Assembly (NCBI RefSeq): GCF_044324875.1
Contig: NZ_CP172185.1
Direction: 5' to 3' (one strand)
Length of the DNA stretch: 64,000 nucleotides
Source: Escherichia coli
GTDB taxonomy: Bacteria; Pseudomonadota; Gammaproteobacteria; Enterobacterales; Enterobacteriaceae
The position numbers and the translations under genes were made by a program. The notes beneath the pieces are model-generated. The model searched no databases. It was not told the DNA's origin and was given only the letters and a program-made list of their open reading frames with translations. Positions 1,534 to 62,321 of this stretch are shown here, in pieces. Position 1 is the first letter of the stretch, and each line of letters starts with the position of its first letter.

Positions 1534-1632
1534 TTAATTAAAGTGGCATCCTCCCGCATCCTCTCTGATAATGACGGGATGCCGGGAGCAATCATGTCTG
1601 CTTCCTGAACGTTTCTTCTGACAGACCAATGG

Positions 1633-2607
1633 ATGCCAGTAATGATTAGCGGCGTGCTGTACGCCCTGTTAGCAGGGTTGATGTGGGGGCTTATTTTTGT
1701 CGGGCCGTTGATCGTGCCGGAATACCCGGCGATGTTGCAGTCTATGGGGCGTTATCTGGCGTTAGGGTTAATTGCGCTGCCCATTGCCTGGCTGGGACGC
1801 GTGCGTCTGCGTCAGTTGGCGCGTCGCGACTGGCTTACCGCCTTGATGCTCACCATGATGGGCAACCTCATCTATTACTTCTGCCTTGCCAGTGCCATTC
1901 AACGTACTGGCGCGCCTGTTTCCACGATGATTATCGGCACCCTGCCGGTGGTGATTCCTGTCCTCGCCAATCTGCTTTATAGCCAGCGTGACGGTAAACT
2001 CGCGTGGGGGAAACTCGCCCCGGCGCTGGTTTGTATTGGCATCGGCCTGGCATGTGTAAATATTGCTGAGTTAGACCACGGACTCCCCGATTTTGACTGG
2101 GCACGTTATACCTCTGGCATCGTGCTGGCGTTAGTTTCCGTGGTCTGCTGGGCGTGGTATGCCTTGCGCAACGCCCGTTGGCTGCGGGAAAACCCAGACA
2201 AACATCCGATGATGTGGGCGACGGCGCAGGCGCTGGTCACGCTGCCGGTTTCGCTCATCGGTTATCTTGTCGCCTGTTACTGGCTGAATACGCAAACGCC
2301 GGACTTCTCCCTACCTTTTGGCCCCCGTCCGCTTGTATTTGTTAGCCTGATGATTGCGATAGCTGTGCTTTGCTCATGGGTCGGCGCACTTTGCTGGAAC
2401 GTCGCCAGCCAGCGATTACCGACCGTGATTCTCGGGCCGCTGATTGTTTTCGAAACGCTGGCAGGTTTGCTGTACACCTTTTTACTCCGCCAGCAAATGC
2501 CGCCGCTGATGACGCTAAGCGGTATCGCGCTGTTAGTGGTTGGCGTGGTCATTGCAGTCAGAGCAAAACCGGAAAAGCCTTTAACTGAATCTGTCTCAGA
2601 AAGTTGA
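1633..2607 (+). CDS. ytfF: DMT/EamA-family inner membrane transporter YtfF
   Basis: 324 aa strongly hydrophobic multi-helix ORF; alternative start at 1642 (MISGVLY) possible. Confidence 0.85.
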   Translation: MPVMISGVLYALLAGLMWGLIFVGPLIVPEYPAMLQSMGRYLALGLIALPIAWLGRVRLRQLARRDWLTALMLTMMGNLIYYFCLASAIQRTGAPVSTMIIGTLPVVIPVLANLLYSQRDGKLAWGKLAPALVCIGIGLACVNIAELDHGLPDFDWARYTSGIVLALVSVVCWAWYALRNARWLRENPDKHPMMWATAQALVTLPVSLIGYLVACYWLNTQTPDFSLPFGPRPLVFVSLMIAIAVLCSWVGALCWNVASQRLPTVILGPLIVFETLAGLLYTFLLRQQMPPLMTLSGIALLVVGVVIAVRAKPEKPLTESVSES

Positions 2608-2665
2608 CACGCTGGCAGTGAGTTAAATAAGCCTCTGCTACGTAAGGGTTATAGCATTTGCCTTA

Positions 2666-2688
2666 AAGATGCATTTAAAATACATCTT
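2666..2688. promoter_or_regulatory. NsrR operator (inverted repeat AAGATGCATTT-A-AAATACATCTT) upstream of ytfE
   Basis: Perfect 11-1-11 inverted repeat seen about 27 bp upstream of the ytfE start codon; matches the known NsrR binding motif; nsrR itself lies at 32551..32976. Confidence 0.8.
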
Positions 2689-2714
2689 ATATTATTAAGA
2701 ATGAGGTATCAGCT

Positions 2715-3377
2715 ATGGCTTATCGCGACCAACCTTTAGGTGAACTGGCGCTCTCTATTCCTCGCGCTTCGGCTCTGTTTCGTAAATATGATATGGATTA
2801 CTGCTGCGGCGGTAAGCAAACGCTGGCGCGTGCGGCGGCACGTAAAGAGCTGGATGTTGACGTCATTGAAGCTGAACTGGCAAAGCTTGCTGAACAACCG
2901 ATTGAGAAAGACTGGCGCAGCGCCCCGCTGGCTGAAATCATCGACCATATCATCGTGCGCTACCACGATCGCCACCGCGAGCAGCTGCCGGAGCTGATCC
3001 TGCAAGCGACTAAAGTCGAGCGCGTTCACGCCGACAAACCGAGCGTGCCAAAAGGGCTGACAAAATACCTGACCATGCTGCATGAAGAGCTTTCCAGCCA
3101 CATGATGAAAGAAGAGCAGATCCTCTTCCCGATGATCAAACAAGGCATGGGCAGCCAGGCGATGGGGCCAATCAGCGTAATGGAAAGCGAGCACGATGAA
3201 GCGGGCGAACTGCTGGAAGTGATCAAACACACTACCAATAACGTCACACCGCCGCCAGAAGCCTGCACCACCTGGAAAGCGATGTATAACGGCATTAATG
3301 AACTGATTGATGACCTGATGGAGCACATCAGCCTGGAAAATAATGTGCTGTTCCCACGCGCGCTGGCGGGTGAGTGA
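2715..3377 (+). CDS. ytfE: Iron-sulfur cluster repair di-iron protein YtfE (RIC)
   Basis: 220 aa [36 protein letters not shown]...; hemerythrin-like repeats. Confidence 0.93.
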
Positions 3378-3384
3378 TTTGTTC

Positions 3385-3418
3385 GATCAACGATCCTGAC
3401 ATGGGCAGGATCGTTGAT
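3385..3418. terminator. Hairpin between convergent ytfE and island gene A (likely bidirectional terminator)
   Basis: Inverted repeat gatcaacgatcctg / caggatcgttgat with a 7-nt loop in the 44-bp gap between two convergent stop codons. Confidence 0.5.
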
Positions 3419-3421
3419 TAT

Positions 3422-4906
3422 TCAGTCATTCAGTGGAAATAATTCATTGTTGTAACTGGTGTACTCACCTTCAACGGTAAGCAAACTGCCGTTTTTATCA
3501 AGATGCGCCGCATCGAGTTGTCGAGTCTCATTACGCCGCTTCGCATCACGTACCAGTCCATCGCCTACGTAATAAATATAGTGGTCATCATGAGCAAAGG
3601 TATCTGATAATTGACCATTGGCGTATTTAAACCACGTCCATTGGCCTTTCAGTTCAAAATGCTCAACCGTGTCTTCATCAATAAAATACGTATAGCGATC
3701 GTCATGTGCTAAATAATTTAATGGTGTGCCATCGGGGCTTTTATACCACTGCCATTGCCCATTAATATCAAAAATAGTCACATCATCGCTCGCAATGAAA
3801 TAAACTTTATCCCCTACAATATTAACACCTTCCTGTAATTCTTGTTGCGGGTCTGGTAAATGAATGACCGACAGCGTTTTTTCGACCGCAGAAACATACT
3901 TCACCAGATAGAGCGAATCTTTATATTGCGCCACATTCTCCGTCAGCGGGCGAAAATATTCCGGATCAACATCAGGAATAGTCGCAACCCGGCAGTCATT
4001 AGCACGCCTGGAAGCATCACGCGTCAACCATGTTACTTTATCCCGCTGCAGGTCAAACGTACTCCGACAATTTTTACCGAACGCATAACGTTTCTCCCCG
4101 TCTTTATCGCGATAAATTAGCAGTGAACCGGCTATCCAGCGCACAATATGAAAGGTATCCGGATCGGCGTTGATGGCATCTCCATTCACAAAGACCTGTG
4201 ATTTAGTCCGCCAGATTGTATCCCAGGGTCCCGGATTACTTTTGCTTTGGCAGCTATTGGGGGAAAATAAAATAATTCGTCGGTCCCAGGATTTAACGCC
4301 AAGAATAGAATACCCTTGCGCACTGCCCAACCAGTGCCCCTGAAAGTAAATATTGTGACGATCTTTCAGCACATCCGCGGAATCACCTGAACCGCCGACT
4401 TGTTGCAACGAATCCATATCGACCTGCTTTTCGTCGCGATTATCATCCGTGCGTTCACCATCAAAATAGAGACTATCTTTATCGGCGGCAAAACGCCCCC
4501 ACGCGCGGAATGTTGCAACATCAACTTTCGGTGTTCCCGGCGGGTTCTGGACTATTTTCCCTGCCCATAAAATATGGCGGCCATCGGTTAACCAGTCGAA
4601 ACGCCAGCCGCCATTTGACCGATAGCCAGAGAAGGGAGCCACCCGCACAAAATCATTATTGATATCATCAGGTGAATCGTATTCACCATCAGTGCCGTTG
4701 GGTACGCGGCGAAGTTGTTTGAACTTTACCTGCGGCAAATGAATATCCGGAAAATCGATACCGTAACCGTCACTATCTTCAACGATATATTTTGTGCCTT
4801 GCCCCCACGGCTGGTAGTAAAACGCAGCATAAGGCACGCCGGAGCAGGCTATCGAAGCGGTTGAAAATAAAGCCAGTGCGAGACAAACGGGTTTAATTGG
4901 CAACAT
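3422..4906 (-). CDS. Secreted/lipoprotein-like protein of unknown function, island paralog A (494 aa), repeated DK..Y(F/Y) and W.W aromatic motifs
   Basis: Long uninterrupted ORF; N-terminal hydrophobic signal (MLPIKPVCLALALFSTASIACSG); shares several conserved blocks with the upstream gene (WLTDGR.ILWAGK, FAADK.S.YFDG.RTDDN, HWLGSA.G, VDPEYF); absent from K-12 at this locus as I recall. Confidence 0.7.
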   Translation of the reverse strand: MLPIKPVCLALALFSTASIACSGVPYAAFYYQPWGQGTKYIVEDSDGYGIDFPDIHLPQVKFKQLRRVPNGTDGEYDSPDDINNDFVRVAPFSGYRSNGGWRFDWLTDGRHILWAGKIVQNPPGTPKVDVATFRAWGRFAADKDSLYFDGERTDDNRDEKQVDMDSLQQVGGSGDSADVLKDRHNIYFQGHWLGSAQGYSILGVKSWDRRIILFSPNSCQSKSNPGPWDTIWRTKSQVFVNGDAINADPDTFHIVRWIAGSLLIYRDKDGEKRYAFGKNCRSTFDLQRDKVTWLTRDASRRANDCRVATIPDVDPEYFRPLTENVAQYKDSLYLVKYVSAVEKTLSVIHLPDPQQELQEGVNIVGDKVYFIASDDVTIFDINGQWQWYKSPDGTPLNYLAHDDRYTYFIDEDTVEHFELKGQWTWFKYANGQLSDTFAHDDHYIYYVGDGLVRDAKRRNETRQLDAAHLDKNGSLLTVEGEYTSYNNELFPLND

Positions 4907-4939: not shown

Positions 4940-6103
4940 TTATTTAAATAAGGGTTTCAGACCGCTCGGGGGTTGCTTCACCGTAGACCATTCTGCTGAA
5001 ATGGGGTTGTAACGCAGCCATTCAGTTTGCTCGTAGTGTTTTCCGTCGATTGTGGTTAATCCACTAAGTTCGTGACTGTAGAGTTGCCCGTCTGTAGTGA
5101 TATACATGTAGCCAGTTACCATGCTTTCCCTATCTAATAATTCAAAAACATCCTCTGGCTTGGGTGTTATCAGTTCACCTTCACCTAATGCATTGGTTTT
5201 AACCTTATAGAATTGATCTTTGTAATAGCCTACCGACCCGGTAAGTAAGGTAAAATATTCCGGATCAACTCCTTTAAGCGTTTCATAAACACAATCACTG
5301 CCCGCAGGCGTCGCTTCTTGTTTGAGCCTGGACACATTCTTCAAACCGATATTAAATAACGCACAACTGTGACCAATATCTTCCAACGTATAGTCATGCT
5401 CGCCGCTTTTATCGCGATAAACTAACCGTTCGCCAGGCATCCAGCGGATTATCTGAAAGGTTTTGCGATCGGCGGGCAGCGGCTTGCCATTAACAATCAC
5501 CTGCGAATTTGTCATTACAACAAATTGCAGGGATGAATCATGCCGCAGGATTTGAAACCCGTCAGCGCTGCCCAACCAGTGCCCCTTATGCCAAAGACTA
5601 TTTTTATCACGCAGTAAATTCCAGATGTCCGTCTCTTCAAGCGTTGACATATCCACCTGCTTATCACCGCTATTATCATCGGTACGCTGGCCGTCAAAAT
5701 AGATACTGCGTTTATCAGCAGCGAAAGCGCCGAATGCCTTAAAACTGGCGGCATCGACATTAGGTTCACCGGATGGATTTTTCAGGACTTTGCCTGCCCA
5801 AAGGACAGAACGTCCATCGGTGAGCCAGGTATGCTGGCAATCCCCCTCGTCATCACAGTCGAACTTATCGGGATTAAAATCGGAGAGCAGCCGGGTTTCT
5901 TGTTTATTGGCTAAATTGGCAATGCGCCAGAGGCGGGAAAAATTAACGTCTGGTAATTCGGAGAGGATCTCATCTTCTTTTCCCTTCTGTTCGGCAACGT
6001 AAACCGTGCCTTTTTCATGCTGGCGGTAATAAAAATCCGCGCCCCAGGAAGGTGAAATGGAGAGAGGTAATGCGGCGATTAATAACCAACTGCGCTTAAC
6101 CAT
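4940..6103 (-). CDS. Secreted protein of unknown function, island paralog B (387 aa from MVKRSWLLIAALPLSISPSWGA)
   Basis: Track ORF 4940..6331; start placed at the internal Met that begins a Sec-type signal peptide; paralogous to 3422..4906; lies 33 bp upstream of it on the same strand (probable two-gene operon). Confidence 0.65.
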   Translation of the reverse strand: MVKRSWLLIAALPLSISPSWGADFYYRQHEKGTVYVAEQKGKEDEILSELPDVNFSRLWRIANLANKQETRLLSDFNPDKFDCDDEGDCQHTWLTDGRSVLWAGKVLKNPSGEPNVDAASFKAFGAFAADKRSIYFDGQRTDDNSGDKQVDMSTLEETDIWNLLRDKNSLWHKGHWLGSADGFQILRHDSSLQFVVMTNSQVIVNGKPLPADRKTFQIIRWMPGERLVYRDKSGEHDYTLEDIGHSCALFNIGLKNVSRLKQEATPAGSDCVYETLKGVDPEYFTLLTGSVGYYKDQFYKVKTNALGEGELITPKPEDVFELLDRESMVTGYMYITTDGQLYSHELSGLTTIDGKHYEQTEWLRYNPISAEWSTVKQPPSGLKPLFK

Positions 6104-8786: not shown

Positions 8787-9425
8787 ATGCCCGGGCGCTT
8801 TGAACTAAAACCAACCCTGGAGAAAGTCTGGCACGCGCCGGACAATTTTCGCTTCATGGACCCGCTGCCGCCGATGCATCGTCGGGGGATCATTATTGCC
8901 GCCATTGTATTGGTGGTCGGATTTCTGCTTCCATCTGATGATACGCCCAACGCGCCAGTGGTGACGCGTGAAGCGCAGTTAGATATTCAGTCGCAATCAC
9001 AACCGCCGACAGAAGAACAGCTGCGGGCGCAGCTAGTTACGCCACAAAATGATCCTGATCAGGTGGCCCCGGTCGCTCCAGAACCTATACAGGAAGGCCA
9101 GCCAGAAGAGCAGCCGCAAACTACCCAAACGCAACCATTCCAGCCAGATAGCGGAATTGATAATCAATGGCGCTCTTACCGTGTCGAACCCGGTAAAACG
9201 ATGGCGCAGCTGTTCCGCGACCACGGACTGCCCGCTACCGATGTCTATGCAATGGCGCAGGTAGAAGGCGCGGGTAAGCCGCTGAGTAATTTGCAAAACG
9301 GGCAGATGGTGAAAATCCGCCAGAACGCCAGCGGCGTGGTGACGGGCTTAACCATTGATACGGGGAATAATCAACAGGTCCTGTTTACCCGCCAGCCGGA
9401 TGGCAGTTTTATTCGTGCGCGGTAG
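8787..9425 (+). CDS. ytfB: Cell-division OapA/LysM-like protein YtfB
   Basis: Track ORF 8751..9425; start at MPGRFELKP gives 212 aa; single TM segment then Pro/Gln-rich linker and C-terminal OapA-like domain. Confidence 0.85.
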
Positions 9426-9525
9426 ATGAAGGGTCAACCAAAAGCCAGCTAAGGATTGTCTCTTTGATGACCTTACGTCTGGCTTCCAGTGCCTGAGGTG
9501 AAACCATACTGATATGTTGACATCC

Positions 9526-9547
9526 TCCACGCCCTGAAGGACGTGGA
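9526..9547. repeat. IS200/IS605 subterminal hairpin, tnpB-proximal (presumed RE)
   Basis: 6-bp stem TCCACG/CGTGGA with loop CCCTGAAGGA, 25 nt beyond the tnpB stop. Confidence 0.7.
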
Positions 9548-9571
9548 TCCCTGCTACGTTCAGGCTGTCGC

Positions 9572-10768
9572 CTAAATCATTTCGGGGGGTTCCTGCTTCA
9601 ACGAGCGGCCTGACTGCACCATCTCTCCACAGGCAAGAACGGCGTGCCCCGCCGCTAAAATGTTACGAGCGCCATTTACATCGGCGTTCGCTGTATATCC
9701 ACATGCCTGGCATCTGAATTTACTTTGTGACAGGCGATTTTCTTTCGCTGTATGACCACAGCACGCGCAACGCTGGCTTGTGTACGCTGGCGGAACAGCA
9801 AGCACCTGACCGCCACGCCAGAGCTGCTTGTACTCAAGCTGGCGGCGCATTTCATACCAGCCCTGATCCAGTATCGAACGGTTTAAACCTGATTTTGCCC
9901 GGACATTGCGCCCCGGCTGGCTGACCGTACCCGCTGCTGACTTTGACATGTTGCTGACCTTCAAATCCTCAATGACTATCATTGCGTGGTTTTTGCTGAC
10001 GGTCGTTGTGACTTTGTGAAGGTAGTCCCTGCGGATATTTGCGATACAGGAATGCAGTCGCTGTATTTTGCGTTTCTGCTTCTGCCAGTTATTGCTGAAT
10101 TTGACCTTGCGGCTTAACTGTCGCTGAAGTCTCGCCAGCTTCTTCTGGTTTTTCTGAAAACTGTTTACAGGCTCAAAGACTGTGCCATCTGACAGCGTGG
10201 CGAGTTTAGCCACGCCAGCATCCAGCCCGACCATTGATGCTGAAGGGTGAACCGGAGTTGATACTTCATTTTCAGTCTGAATACTGATGTACCACTTACC
10301 GCAGGACTGGCTGACAGTGACATTTTTCACAACACCCGTGACCTGACGGCTATTCCGGTAGCGCATCCAGCCAAGTTTCGGCAGAAAAATACGGCTGTTT
10401 TCCTGATCGAGCTTAACGCCCTGCGGGTAGCGGAATGCATCATTCTGTCCCCGCTTTTTGAATCGGGGAAAAGCAGCCCGCTTCTGGAAGAAGTTTTTGT
10501 AAGCCCGCTCAAGGTCTTTCAGTGACTGTTGCAATGGCTGTGAGGGCGAATCTTTAAGCCATTGCGTTTCAGTGGCGTTTTTCCACTCAACCAGCCAGGA
10601 AGCCATTTTCCCGTAAGGGATGTATTTATTACCGGCCTCATGATTCTCATTCTGACGTGCCAGAGCACGATTGAAAACGAAACGACATGCGCCTGCGAAG
10701 CGCCTCATTTCACGCTCCTGTTGACCACCGGGTCTTAACTGGAATTTAAATGCCTGTAGTCGTTTCAC
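9572..10768 (-). CDS. tnpB: IS200/IS605-family TnpB (OrfB), RuvC-like RNA-guided nuclease family
   Basis: 398 aa; N-terminal [13 protein letters not shown]..., RuvC-I-like IEDLKV, C-terminal zinc finger CACCGH...CQACG and RuvC-III-like DVNGARNI; full length with no internal stops. Confidence 0.9.
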
Positions 10769-10775
10769 AGGCCAA

Positions 10776-11390
10776 ATGATACTTTGGTCTGTGAGAAAAG
10801 AAACCGATATCCGGCGTGGAAGGCATTGTGTTTTCCTGATGCATGTTCACCAGGTCTTTGTCACCAAATACCGACGTCAGATTTTTGACCATGACGCGAC
10901 AGAAAAACTACGCACTTACTTTTCAAATGTATGTGCTGATTTTGAAGCTGAACTGGTTGAAATGGATGGCGAACCAGATCACGTCCATTTGTTAATTAAC
11001 TATCCTCCCAAACTGGCGATATCCAGTCTGGTAAACAGCCTCAAAGGCGTATCGGGTAGGTTACTGCGACGAGATCGACCAGATATTGCAGTCAGGTATT
11101 ACTACAAAGGCGTTTTGTGGAGTCCTGGCTATTTTGCCAGTAGCTGCGGAGGTGCGCCAATATCCGTCATCCGCCAATACATTGAACAACAGCAAACACC
11201 TGATCAGGTGGAAAACCGCGCCTTATATCCCCGCCCTGAAGGACGGGGTTTTACGGCGCACCGGATAAACCAGGCCAAGCGTATGCTGGTTGATCAAATA
11301 ATATCCCCCAAGCGCAGCAATATTAATATTCACCTGCAATGGGTCGATATCTGGCTTAAAAATATTGTGTTTCCTCCCTTCATCCAATAA
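10776..11390 (+). CDS. tnpA: IS200/IS605-family HuH transposase TnpA; ORF reads through the subterminal hairpin, so the functional C-terminus is uncertain
   Basis: HuH motif ([11 protein letters not shown]) and catalytic Tyr region ([22 protein letters not shown]); about 55 extra codons follow and cross the 11229..11248 hairpin. Confidence 0.75.
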
Positions 11391-11483
11391 GGATTCCATT
11401 AACTGCAAGTGCGCATGATTAATTTCTAAGAGACACTGTGATTTTGCATAATGCACACCTTTACTTTGGTTTTCACTATGCAC
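11223..11483 (-). pseudogene. ytfA-like regulator fragment whose 3' end is encoded by IS-end sequence
   Basis: 86-aa ORF at the position where K-12 carries ytfA (as I recall); its last codons overlap the IS hairpin, suggesting the IS inserted into or next to the gene's 3' end. Confidence 0.3.
11229..11248. repeat. IS200/IS605 subterminal hairpin, tnpA-proximal (presumed LE)
   Basis: 5-bp stem CCCCG/CGGGG with the same loop CCCTGAAGGA as the hairpin at 9526..9547. Confidence 0.7.
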
Positions 11484-11832
11484 AATTTTTAAAAACCAGG
11501 GATTAGCAATATAATAATCCCAGGTAAAATCGATGATTTTTTCAATGGCTTTTTGTGGCTGGTTAACCTGCTGATTAACAAACGCACCGATACCGACAGC
11601 GTAGAATAATTACATACCGCACAACAAGAATGTATGGTGTAAGGCGTTGTCAGTCATCTCCCTCCCTGGGTGCATCGTTATATCCGTGATGAGCGATTTT
11701 TGATATTAATATCTTTCACCATCCGCTATTTTCACTACTTCAGAAAACAAACTTATTTTTATTAATATCGATTCTTTTTCTTTGAGCATTTAACTACGAT
11801 ATTTATAAAAAAATTAAACAGGCAAAAATACA

Positions 11833-13741: not shown

Positions 13742-14155
<414 letters not shown>

Positions 14156-14463
14156 TTATTCAGCCTCCTGTCTGGGTCAGCCGAATCCCGGGGAGGCAAG
14201 GAACGTGTTAAAGGTCGGCTGAAAAATGACGCGTTATAGTACTGACATACCCCGCTAAACTCAAGGCCAGCCGACAAATAAATCTCATCTTTCACCAAAT
14301 CGTACTAACACGCTGATTTGAAGTTCATCACACTTCATCATGGTGTTTTTTTGAACAACTGCATCAGAAATGGTCACCATCAACTTCTTTATCATTGATT
14401 AAAATTAAATCAGAAGATCATCACAGAGGAGAGCACACAAAGTCAGCCGTTGAGGAGGTATCT

Positions 14464-32550: not shown

Positions 32551-32976
32551 TCACTCCACCAGCAATAATTTATAAAGCGGTTGATTCTCTTCAACCAAAT
32601 CGGCAAGCGTGTAGTTATCAAGTTCCGTAAGAAAACTTTGCACGGCCTTAGAAAGCGCCTGTTTCAACCGACAGGCAGGTGTAATGTGGCAAAACTCACT
32701 GCTGCAATTCACCAGCGATAAGGGCTCCAGCTCGCGCACCACATCACCAATACGTATCGCACTCGCCGGTTTACCCAGACGAATGCCGCCATTTTTTCCA
32801 CGAACAGCAGTCACGTAGCCGGCACGACTAAGTTGATTGATTATTTTGACCATATGATTACGGGAGACGCCGTAGACGTCAGTCACTTCAGAAATACTGG
32901 TCATCCGCCCTTCTGGCAATGACGCCATGTAGATCAGCGCACGTAATCCGTAATCAGTGAAACTCGTTAACTGCAC
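32551..32976 (-). CDS. nsrR: Nitric-oxide-sensing Rrf2-family repressor NsrR
   Basis: 141 aa, [49 protein letters not shown]..., three-Cys cluster ligand region. Confidence 0.95.
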
Positions 32977-33180
32977 ATCAACCTCAAAAGGGAAATCGGG
33001 AAAAAATACATTTATATTGATGATAAACCAGCCACAAGCTGTGTCGCTAATTTATTTCAGTTCGGGGAAGGAAAAAAGCGAGGATTTAACACTGTGTCGG
33101 ATAGCGTAATGGCTTAACCGACACAGCAATGTATCACACTGTTAGCCCGGCAGGCAAAATATCTGCCAGGCGTACCAGAA

Positions 33181-46507: not shown

Positions 46508-46583
<76 letters not shown>

Positions 46584-46618
46584 TTGGGTGGTCTGTGCTT
46601 TACAGCACTTTCAAATTT

Positions 46619-46694
<76 letters not shown>

Positions 46695-46851
46695 TTAATC
46701 TTCGTCTTTCGAACCGCTACTGCCTTGGCTGCCTTCACTCACCTTAGTCACTTACTTTTGTAAGCTCCCAAGGATTCGTTCAGTTGCCGCCTTGTCGCAA
46801 TTCGAAATACTGCGATTGGGTGGTCTGTGCTTTGCAGCACTTTTCAAATTT

Positions 46852-46927
<76 letters not shown>

Positions 46928-62147: not shown

Positions 62148-62165
62148 ATCAGGCTCCGGAGAATT

Positions 62166-62210
62166 GGGGCCGTCCCCGGTGAAAAGAGGCGTTTGCAGGT
62201 CGTCCTGCAA
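62166..62210 (-). ncRNA. Guanidine-II riboswitch (mini-ykkC) in the sugE 5' leader
   Basis: On the minus-strand transcript: two short GC hairpins with ACGR tetraloops, ttgcagg-ACGA-cctgcaa and gggg-ACGG-cccc, separated by about 10 nt and ending about 20 nt before the sugE ATG. Confidence 0.8.
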
Positions 62211-62321
62211 AGCTGATGGTTGAACGGATATTTTGCCAGGTGGCAGGGGAATTTCAACTATTACCTTTGTGACTATCGCAAAAAAACAAACGGCACGACA
62301 TAACTGTCGTACCGTTATTGC

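Follow-up and report, generated by a model that had tools for sequence, protein, structure and literature searches.

The NsrR binding site of ytfE in Escherichia coli K-12 was reportedly described by Bodenmiller and Spiro in 2006 and by Partridge et al. in 2009. In strain CFT073, the ytfE site lies under an NsrR ChIP-seq peak with 9.65-fold enrichment and is the best 11-1-11 site of the genome according to PatSer (ln P -25.13); nitrate-derived NO raises ytfE expression 69.6-fold (Mehta et al., 2015; PMC5320621). The motif was predicted upstream of dnrN/ytfE, hmp, and hcp (Rodionov et al., 2005). The [4Fe-4S] form of NsrR represses, while the nitrosylated form does not, and YtfE and NsrR have been presented as a pair monitoring cytosolic nitrite (Crack et al., 2022). 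The structure of the enterobacterial NsrR has not been solved (PMC10783083). In a Salmonella nsrR mutant, ytfE was up 544-fold, and in EHEC the ytfE promoter region serves as an NsrR-dependent NO reporter. The function of YtfE itself is debated: Fe-S cluster repair has been proposed on the one hand, and NO-generating nitrite reductase activity on the other.

Comparison of the DNA studied here (64,000 nucleotides, hereafter the window) with K-12 MG1655 demonstrated that both carry the same 23-mer, AAGATGCATTTAAAATACATCTT, at the same distance of 26 nt from the ytfE start codon and between the same flanking genes, ytfF and ytfE; the 23-mer of strain C4 is also identical. Within the 107-nt ytfF-ytfE intergenic region, the window and K-12 differ by only two substitutions, both outside the operator (A2656 versus T and A2692 versus C). 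The site of CFT073 occupies the same locus and has the same arms; however, at the position of A2682 it carries G and is therefore a perfect palindrome. NsrR binding and NO-dependent derepression have been reported for both the identical K-12 site and the CFT073 variant. A further difference from K-12 was observed downstream of ytfE, where the window contains two paralogous genes of the DKNYY family (PF13644), located at 3422..4906 and 4940..6103 on the minus strand between ytfE and cycA. K-12 MG1655 lacks this pair, which strain C4 and others have. An upstream extension of the second ORF to 6331 would give 463 aa.

The NsrR operator of hmp in E. coli and Salmonella has the arm AAGATGCATTT and the 11-1-11 layout in common with the ytfE site. 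However, its second arm is more degenerate (TTGATGTATCT in CFT073), and the score on our NsrR matrix is 20.5 bits versus 30.3 for ytfE. FNR and further factors also act on the hmp promoter. The NsrR protein of Streptomyces coelicolor, whose known regulon consists of only three targets, shares about 39% identity with the NsrR encoded in the window. Its complex with the hmpA1 operator (PDB 7B0C) shows a homologous Rrf2 repressor (E = 1.5e-19) with aligned cysteines, bound as a dimer to a palindromic operator.

The NsrR operator upstream of ytfE

The site upstream of ytfE is almost certainly the operator through which NsrR, encoded in trans, represses this gene, with NO relieving the repression. 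Its identity follows from the weight-matrix score, the identity with K-12, and the assignment of both genes, all observed here, together with the in vivo binding and NO response known from the literature. The coordinates are summarized in Table 1.

Table 1. Features of the ytfE-nsrR regulatory pair in the window.
Feature	Position	Strand	Evidence
Conserved block TGCTACGTAAGGGTTA upstream of the operator	2636..2651	+	ytfE upstream alignment; comparison with the NarL/NarP consensus
NsrR operator of ytfE	2666..2688	.	sequence; comparison of arms; weight matrix; identity with K-12; orthologous CFT073 ChIP-seq
Candidate -10 hexamer TAAAAT, operator centre	2676..2681	+	read from the sequence
Shine-Dalgarno GAGG, 7 nt upstream of the ytfE ATG	2704..2707	+	sequence; at least 90% conserved in the ytfE upstream alignment
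ytfE (RIC/YtfE di-iron protein, 220 aa), repressed target	2715..3377	+	ORF; NF008221; Pfam
nsrR (Rrf2-family NO-sensing repressor, 141 aa, GTG start), first gene upstream of rnr	32551..32976	-	ORF; NF008240; Pfam

The 23-mer occurs only once in the window, within 2660..2714. The left arm (2666..2676, AAGATGCATTT) and the right arm (2678..2688, AAATACATCTT) are separated by a single A at 2677, and two inverted 11-bp arms around a 1-bp spacer constitute the layout of the E. coli-type NsrR operator. The reverse complement of the left arm, AAATGCATCTT, agrees with the right arm at 10 of 11 positions, the mismatch being an A in place of G at 2682. The first-pass annotation had described a perfect 11-1-11 inverted repeat just upstream of ytfE; the repeat was indeed found there, its 3' end 26 nt upstream of the ATG (2715), but it is not perfect. 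Most of the published functional 11-1-11 sites are less symmetric (Mehta et al., 2015; PMC5320621). Six inverted repeats of this layout with at most one mismatch were observed in the window, where first-order Markov nulls predict 0.65; the five others are rich in G+C. It is the match to the NsrR motif, and not palindromy alone, that sets this site apart.

The motif match was evaluated with a symmetric log-odds position weight matrix (PWM) built from the 11-1-11 sites in Table 4 of the CFT073 study (Mehta et al., 2015; PMC5320621). The training set comprised 25 published CFT073 sites, with ytfE and one duplicate left out. The ytfE site of the window scored 30.34 bits, above all 25 training sites (12.3-26.7 bits); the perfectly palindromic variant scored 31.14 bits, so the A at 2682 costs 0.8 bits. 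The second-best match in the window reached 13.47 bits, while the best matches in 200 Markov-generated sequences of 64 kb averaged 14.1 +/- 2.3 bits with a maximum of 21.9. Thus, the scan proposed in the first-pass annotation, for which an insignificant score at this site would have counted against NsrR, returned the site as the top hit, far above the null maximum. Apart from it, the PWM detected no full NsrR site beyond chance in the 64 kb, and the window therefore contains exactly one full site by this measure. This result is in line with the ChIP-seq data of CFT073, whose table lists no promoter peak other than ytfE in the ytfE-nsrR stretch.

The runner-up at 10913..10935 (13.5 bits) was rejected as an NsrR site: it falls within an IS element, in a tnpA-like ORF, and does not exceed chance. 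The element itself is an IS200/IS605-type insertion at 9409..11558 in the ytfA/TetR pseudogene region. Two ORFs belong to it, one TnpB/InsQ-like (9572..10768, minus strand) and the tnpA-like one (10776..11390, plus strand), the latter annotated as a pseudogene in strain C4.

The gene downstream of the operator was assigned by the NCBIfam equivalog model NF008221 (417.7 bits versus a cut-off of 254) and by the Pfam domains ScdA_N (PF04405) and Hemerythrin (PF01814), the combination expected of a YtfE/RIC di-iron protein; ytfE is annotated in 5414 E. coli genomes. The operator is thus located in the promoter region of a nitrosative-stress gene. It is an already described and ordinary NsrR operator, and the NsrR-ytfE pair forms part of the textbook nitrosative-stress response, a picture that the present findings leave unchanged. 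We retained the suggested use of the locus as an internal control for motif-based annotation, solely as a positive control: as this is the strongest NsrR operator in E. coli, a motif scanner that misses it must be faulty, and a sound one should return exactly one full site in these 64 kb.

The nsrR gene and its distance from ytfE

The product of nsrR matched the equivalog model NF008240 with 292.8 bits (cut-off 182), which means that the cognate repressor is encoded in the same genome as the operator. The Pfam domain Rrf2 covers residues 3-130. The protein has only three cysteines, C91, C96, and C102; the residues aligned with them in S. coelicolor NsrR (5N07/7B0C) are cysteines too, and are replaced by alanines in the variant chain 5N08. 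The assignment to NsrR was thus based on the equivalog match, the Rrf2 winged-helix domain, and the three aligned C-terminal cysteines; the gene is also annotated in strain C4. The coordinates previously given for nsrR were exact, to which we add that the gene lies on the minus strand.

Upstream of nsrR, an NsrR-like half-site, AAAATACATTT (13.3 bits), was noticed at 33003..33013, 27 nt before the GTG start and overlapping a TATAAA box. Autoregulation of nsrR through this half-site was considered and rejected: three half-sites of at least 13 bits were observed across the window versus 1.9 expected, and no promoter peak is listed at this position in CFT073.

The operator and nsrR are 29.9-30.3 kb apart. 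One could suppose that this proximity is functionally meaningful, having been selected for co-inheritance or for local repressor concentration. Both genes do fall within one 64-kb window, and in several non-enteric genomes an nsrR-like gene is the immediate neighbour of an operator-bearing gene, as in at least 14 divergent pairs of nsrR-like and truncated-globin genes. However, 35 unrelated annotated features intervene between the site and nsrR, including ribosomal protein genes, the ula operon, aidB, and rnr. In CFT073, the other strong NsrR sites, those of hmp, hcp, ygbA, and yeaR, lie at distances of megabases (Mehta et al., 2015; PMC5320621). For dispersed targets on a 5-Mb chromosome, the probability of finding one or more of them no further than 30.3 kb from nsrR on either side amounts to 7% with six targets, 28% with 27, and 45% with 49. 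A functional role of the proximity therefore appears very unlikely. The 30-kb spacing is roughly at chance level and does not represent cis-linkage; the regulon of NsrR is dispersed and controlled in trans, so that the co-occurrence has no mechanistic meaning. Accordingly, the description of the locus as a textbook NO-responsive regulatory pair holds for its members, the operator by the PWM and both genes by the equivalog models, but not for their proximity.

The ytfE promoter and the proposed mode of repression

The candidate -10 hexamer at the operator centre matches the -10 consensus at five of six positions, and every operator variant in front of ytfE (TAAAAT, TAATAT, and TAACAT) preserves the pattern T-A-x-x-A-T. 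A scan with the sigma-70 consensus detected no full -35/-10 pair at the operator. By hand inspection, either TAAAAT or TATATT (2688..2693) could serve as the -10 element, neither with a convincing -35. No mapped transcription start of ytfE was found in the literature searched. Most likely, the NsrR operator overlaps the -10 element and the transcription start of the ytfE promoter. We infer this occlusion from the geometry of the region and the very large derepression ratios reported.

The proposed mechanism is as follows. NsrR, produced from its distant gene on the minus strand, acts as a dimeric Rrf2-family winged-helix protein with an iron-sulfur cluster, and the cluster-bound form would place one subunit on each 11-bp arm of the 11-1-11 site. 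Because the operator probably covers the -10 region and the start point, the bound repressor would block RNA polymerase at the ytfE promoter. Nitric oxide would then nitrosylate the cluster, NsrR would leave the DNA, and ytfE would become strongly derepressed.

In 46 of 50 ytfE upstream regions taken from other Enterobacterales, the block TGCTACGTAAGGGTTA upstream of the operator keeps a fixed distance of 21-22 nt between its centre and the operator's first base. In the window, its match to the NarL/NarP 7-2-7 consensus TACYYMT-NN-AKRRGTA is weak (10 of 14 positions, a value of at least 10 being reached by about 21% of shuffled 50-mers). The same aligned block in most other genera matches at 11-13 of 14 positions, and the mean of the shuffled best matches is 8.9. 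NarP control of dnrN/ytfE was predicted in enterobacteria (Rodionov et al., 2005). The block may be an activator site or a substitute for the -35 element. If transcription starts near 2687/2688, the block would be centred at about -43.5/-44.5. The yeaR promoter has such a geometry. It is conceivable, though rather unlikely, that the ytfE promoter is a two-input promoter in which the -10 element is buried in the NsrR operator, no recognisable -35 exists, and the NarL/NarP-like block is present, so that nitrate/nitrite and NO would be integrated directly; the A/G difference at 2682 might then tune the NO threshold between lineages.

The site or the surrounding A/T-rich DNA could also be thought of mainly as a target of Fur, FNR, or another Rrf2 protein such as IscR, with NsrR playing a secondary role. 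Derepression of ytfE in E. coli fur and fnr mutants would fit this, as would its 10-fold increase in a Salmonella fur mutant together with a putative Fur motif; IscR is, in addition, the next-closest solved relative of NsrR. However, a review of the RIC proteins recognised no Fur or FNR sites in the ytfE promoter, and the fur and fnr effects are thought to be indirect. The site outscores every training site on the NsrR matrix and is covered by the NsrR ChIP-seq peak in CFT073, and deletion of nsrR alone accounted for the 544-fold derepression in Salmonella. We therefore regard a primary role of these other regulators as highly improbable, and repression by NsrR is retained as the explanation of the site.

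Finally, there is next to no chance that the repeat, although it lies 58 nt past the stop codon of ytfF and a U-rich stretch (UAUAUUAUU) comes after it, acts as RNA, either as a hairpin terminating ytfF or by structuring the ytfE leader: the fold of the repeat region is unremarkable (-4 kcal/mol, z = -0.66, with 44 of 200 shuffles folding at least as well), which excludes a hairpin or terminator, a spacer of 1 nt is too short for a loop, and the recurrence of the operator sequence in front of hmp, hcp, and globin genes, in surroundings otherwise unrelated, fits the site of a trans-acting factor. No stable G+C-rich hairpin with a U-tract that folds better than shuffled sequences was present at 2666..2688; the terminator scan of 2450..3500 found none, and the Rfam search returned no family at the operator position.

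Strain variation and genomic context of the operator

About 4186 of 5426 complete E. coli genomes (~77%) have the imperfect form of the site with A at 2682, as do the window and K-12, and about 967 (~18%) have the perfectly palindromic form with G, known from CFT073. The alleles were counted with 46-nt queries, for which a 28-nt seed requirement should make the two sets mutually exclusive; thus, the imperfect site is the majority allele of E. coli.

The ytfF-ytfE segment of the window (1600..3500) reached at most 97.3% identity to any of the 5426 complete E. coli genomes, while the region 30-42 kb of the window, i.e., the 12 kb around nsrR, showed 99.4% identity to E. coli. The former value had pointed to another species, a reading rejected in view of the latter: the window is E. 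coli. Together, the values suggest local divergence or recombination at 1600..3500. Records labelled as plasmids also gave a few matches to this stretch of the chromosome.

The context of the operator in other species was explored with the exact pattern AAGATGCATTTNANATRCATC, representing the operator core, in one genome per species, which yielded at least 120 matching loci. For each match, the first ORF on each side was called, and the ORFs were clustered and the clusters named. The search was conditioned on the motif, and 120 matches are listed out of at least that number; the counts therefore show context specificity and not unbiased conservation. Among the 120 matches listed, 100 adjoin ytfE, hmp, hcp, an nsrR-like gene, or a truncated globin gene. 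The core is flanked by ytfE in 49 of them, 31 with the same 26-nt distance, and by hmp in 28, of which 19 have glyA as the divergent gene. An nsrR-like Rrf2 gene and/or a truncated globin gene adjoins 21 of the matches listed, tehB eight, and hcp two. The remaining 12 of those listed have none of the named genes beside them; one of these adjoins a norB-type NO reductase gene.

Among the matches listed with the operator oriented toward ytfE, the perfect form (G) was found 16 times and the form of the window (A) 15 times. In 50 ytfE upstream regions, the mean identity to the window was 0.96 for the operator, 0.68 for the 20 nt before it, 0.70 for the 26 nt after it, and about 0.38 further upstream; as these regions were chosen for carrying the operator, only the flank identities are informative.

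In at least 14 loci from Methylobacter and other gammaproteobacterial MAGs, the operator core is located between a divergent nsrR-like Rrf2 gene and a gene encoding a 126-aa truncated globin (PF01152). This arrangement is a compact cassette of regulator, operator, and target, in contrast to the dispersed layout of enterobacteria. In at least 18 loci of the Enterobacter/Lelliottia/Kluyvera type, a gene of a methyl-accepting chemotaxis protein replaces ytfF as the divergent neighbour of ytfE, which places the NsrR operator in the intergenic region shared by the two genes.

The Rfam search of the window, at the gathering threshold, also identified a guanidine-II (mini-ykkC) riboswitch at 62165..62211, an RpsF leader at 14135..14219, and three tandem tRNA genes at 46511..46927, all on the minus strand; the tRNA genes are annotated as tRNA-Gly in strain C4.
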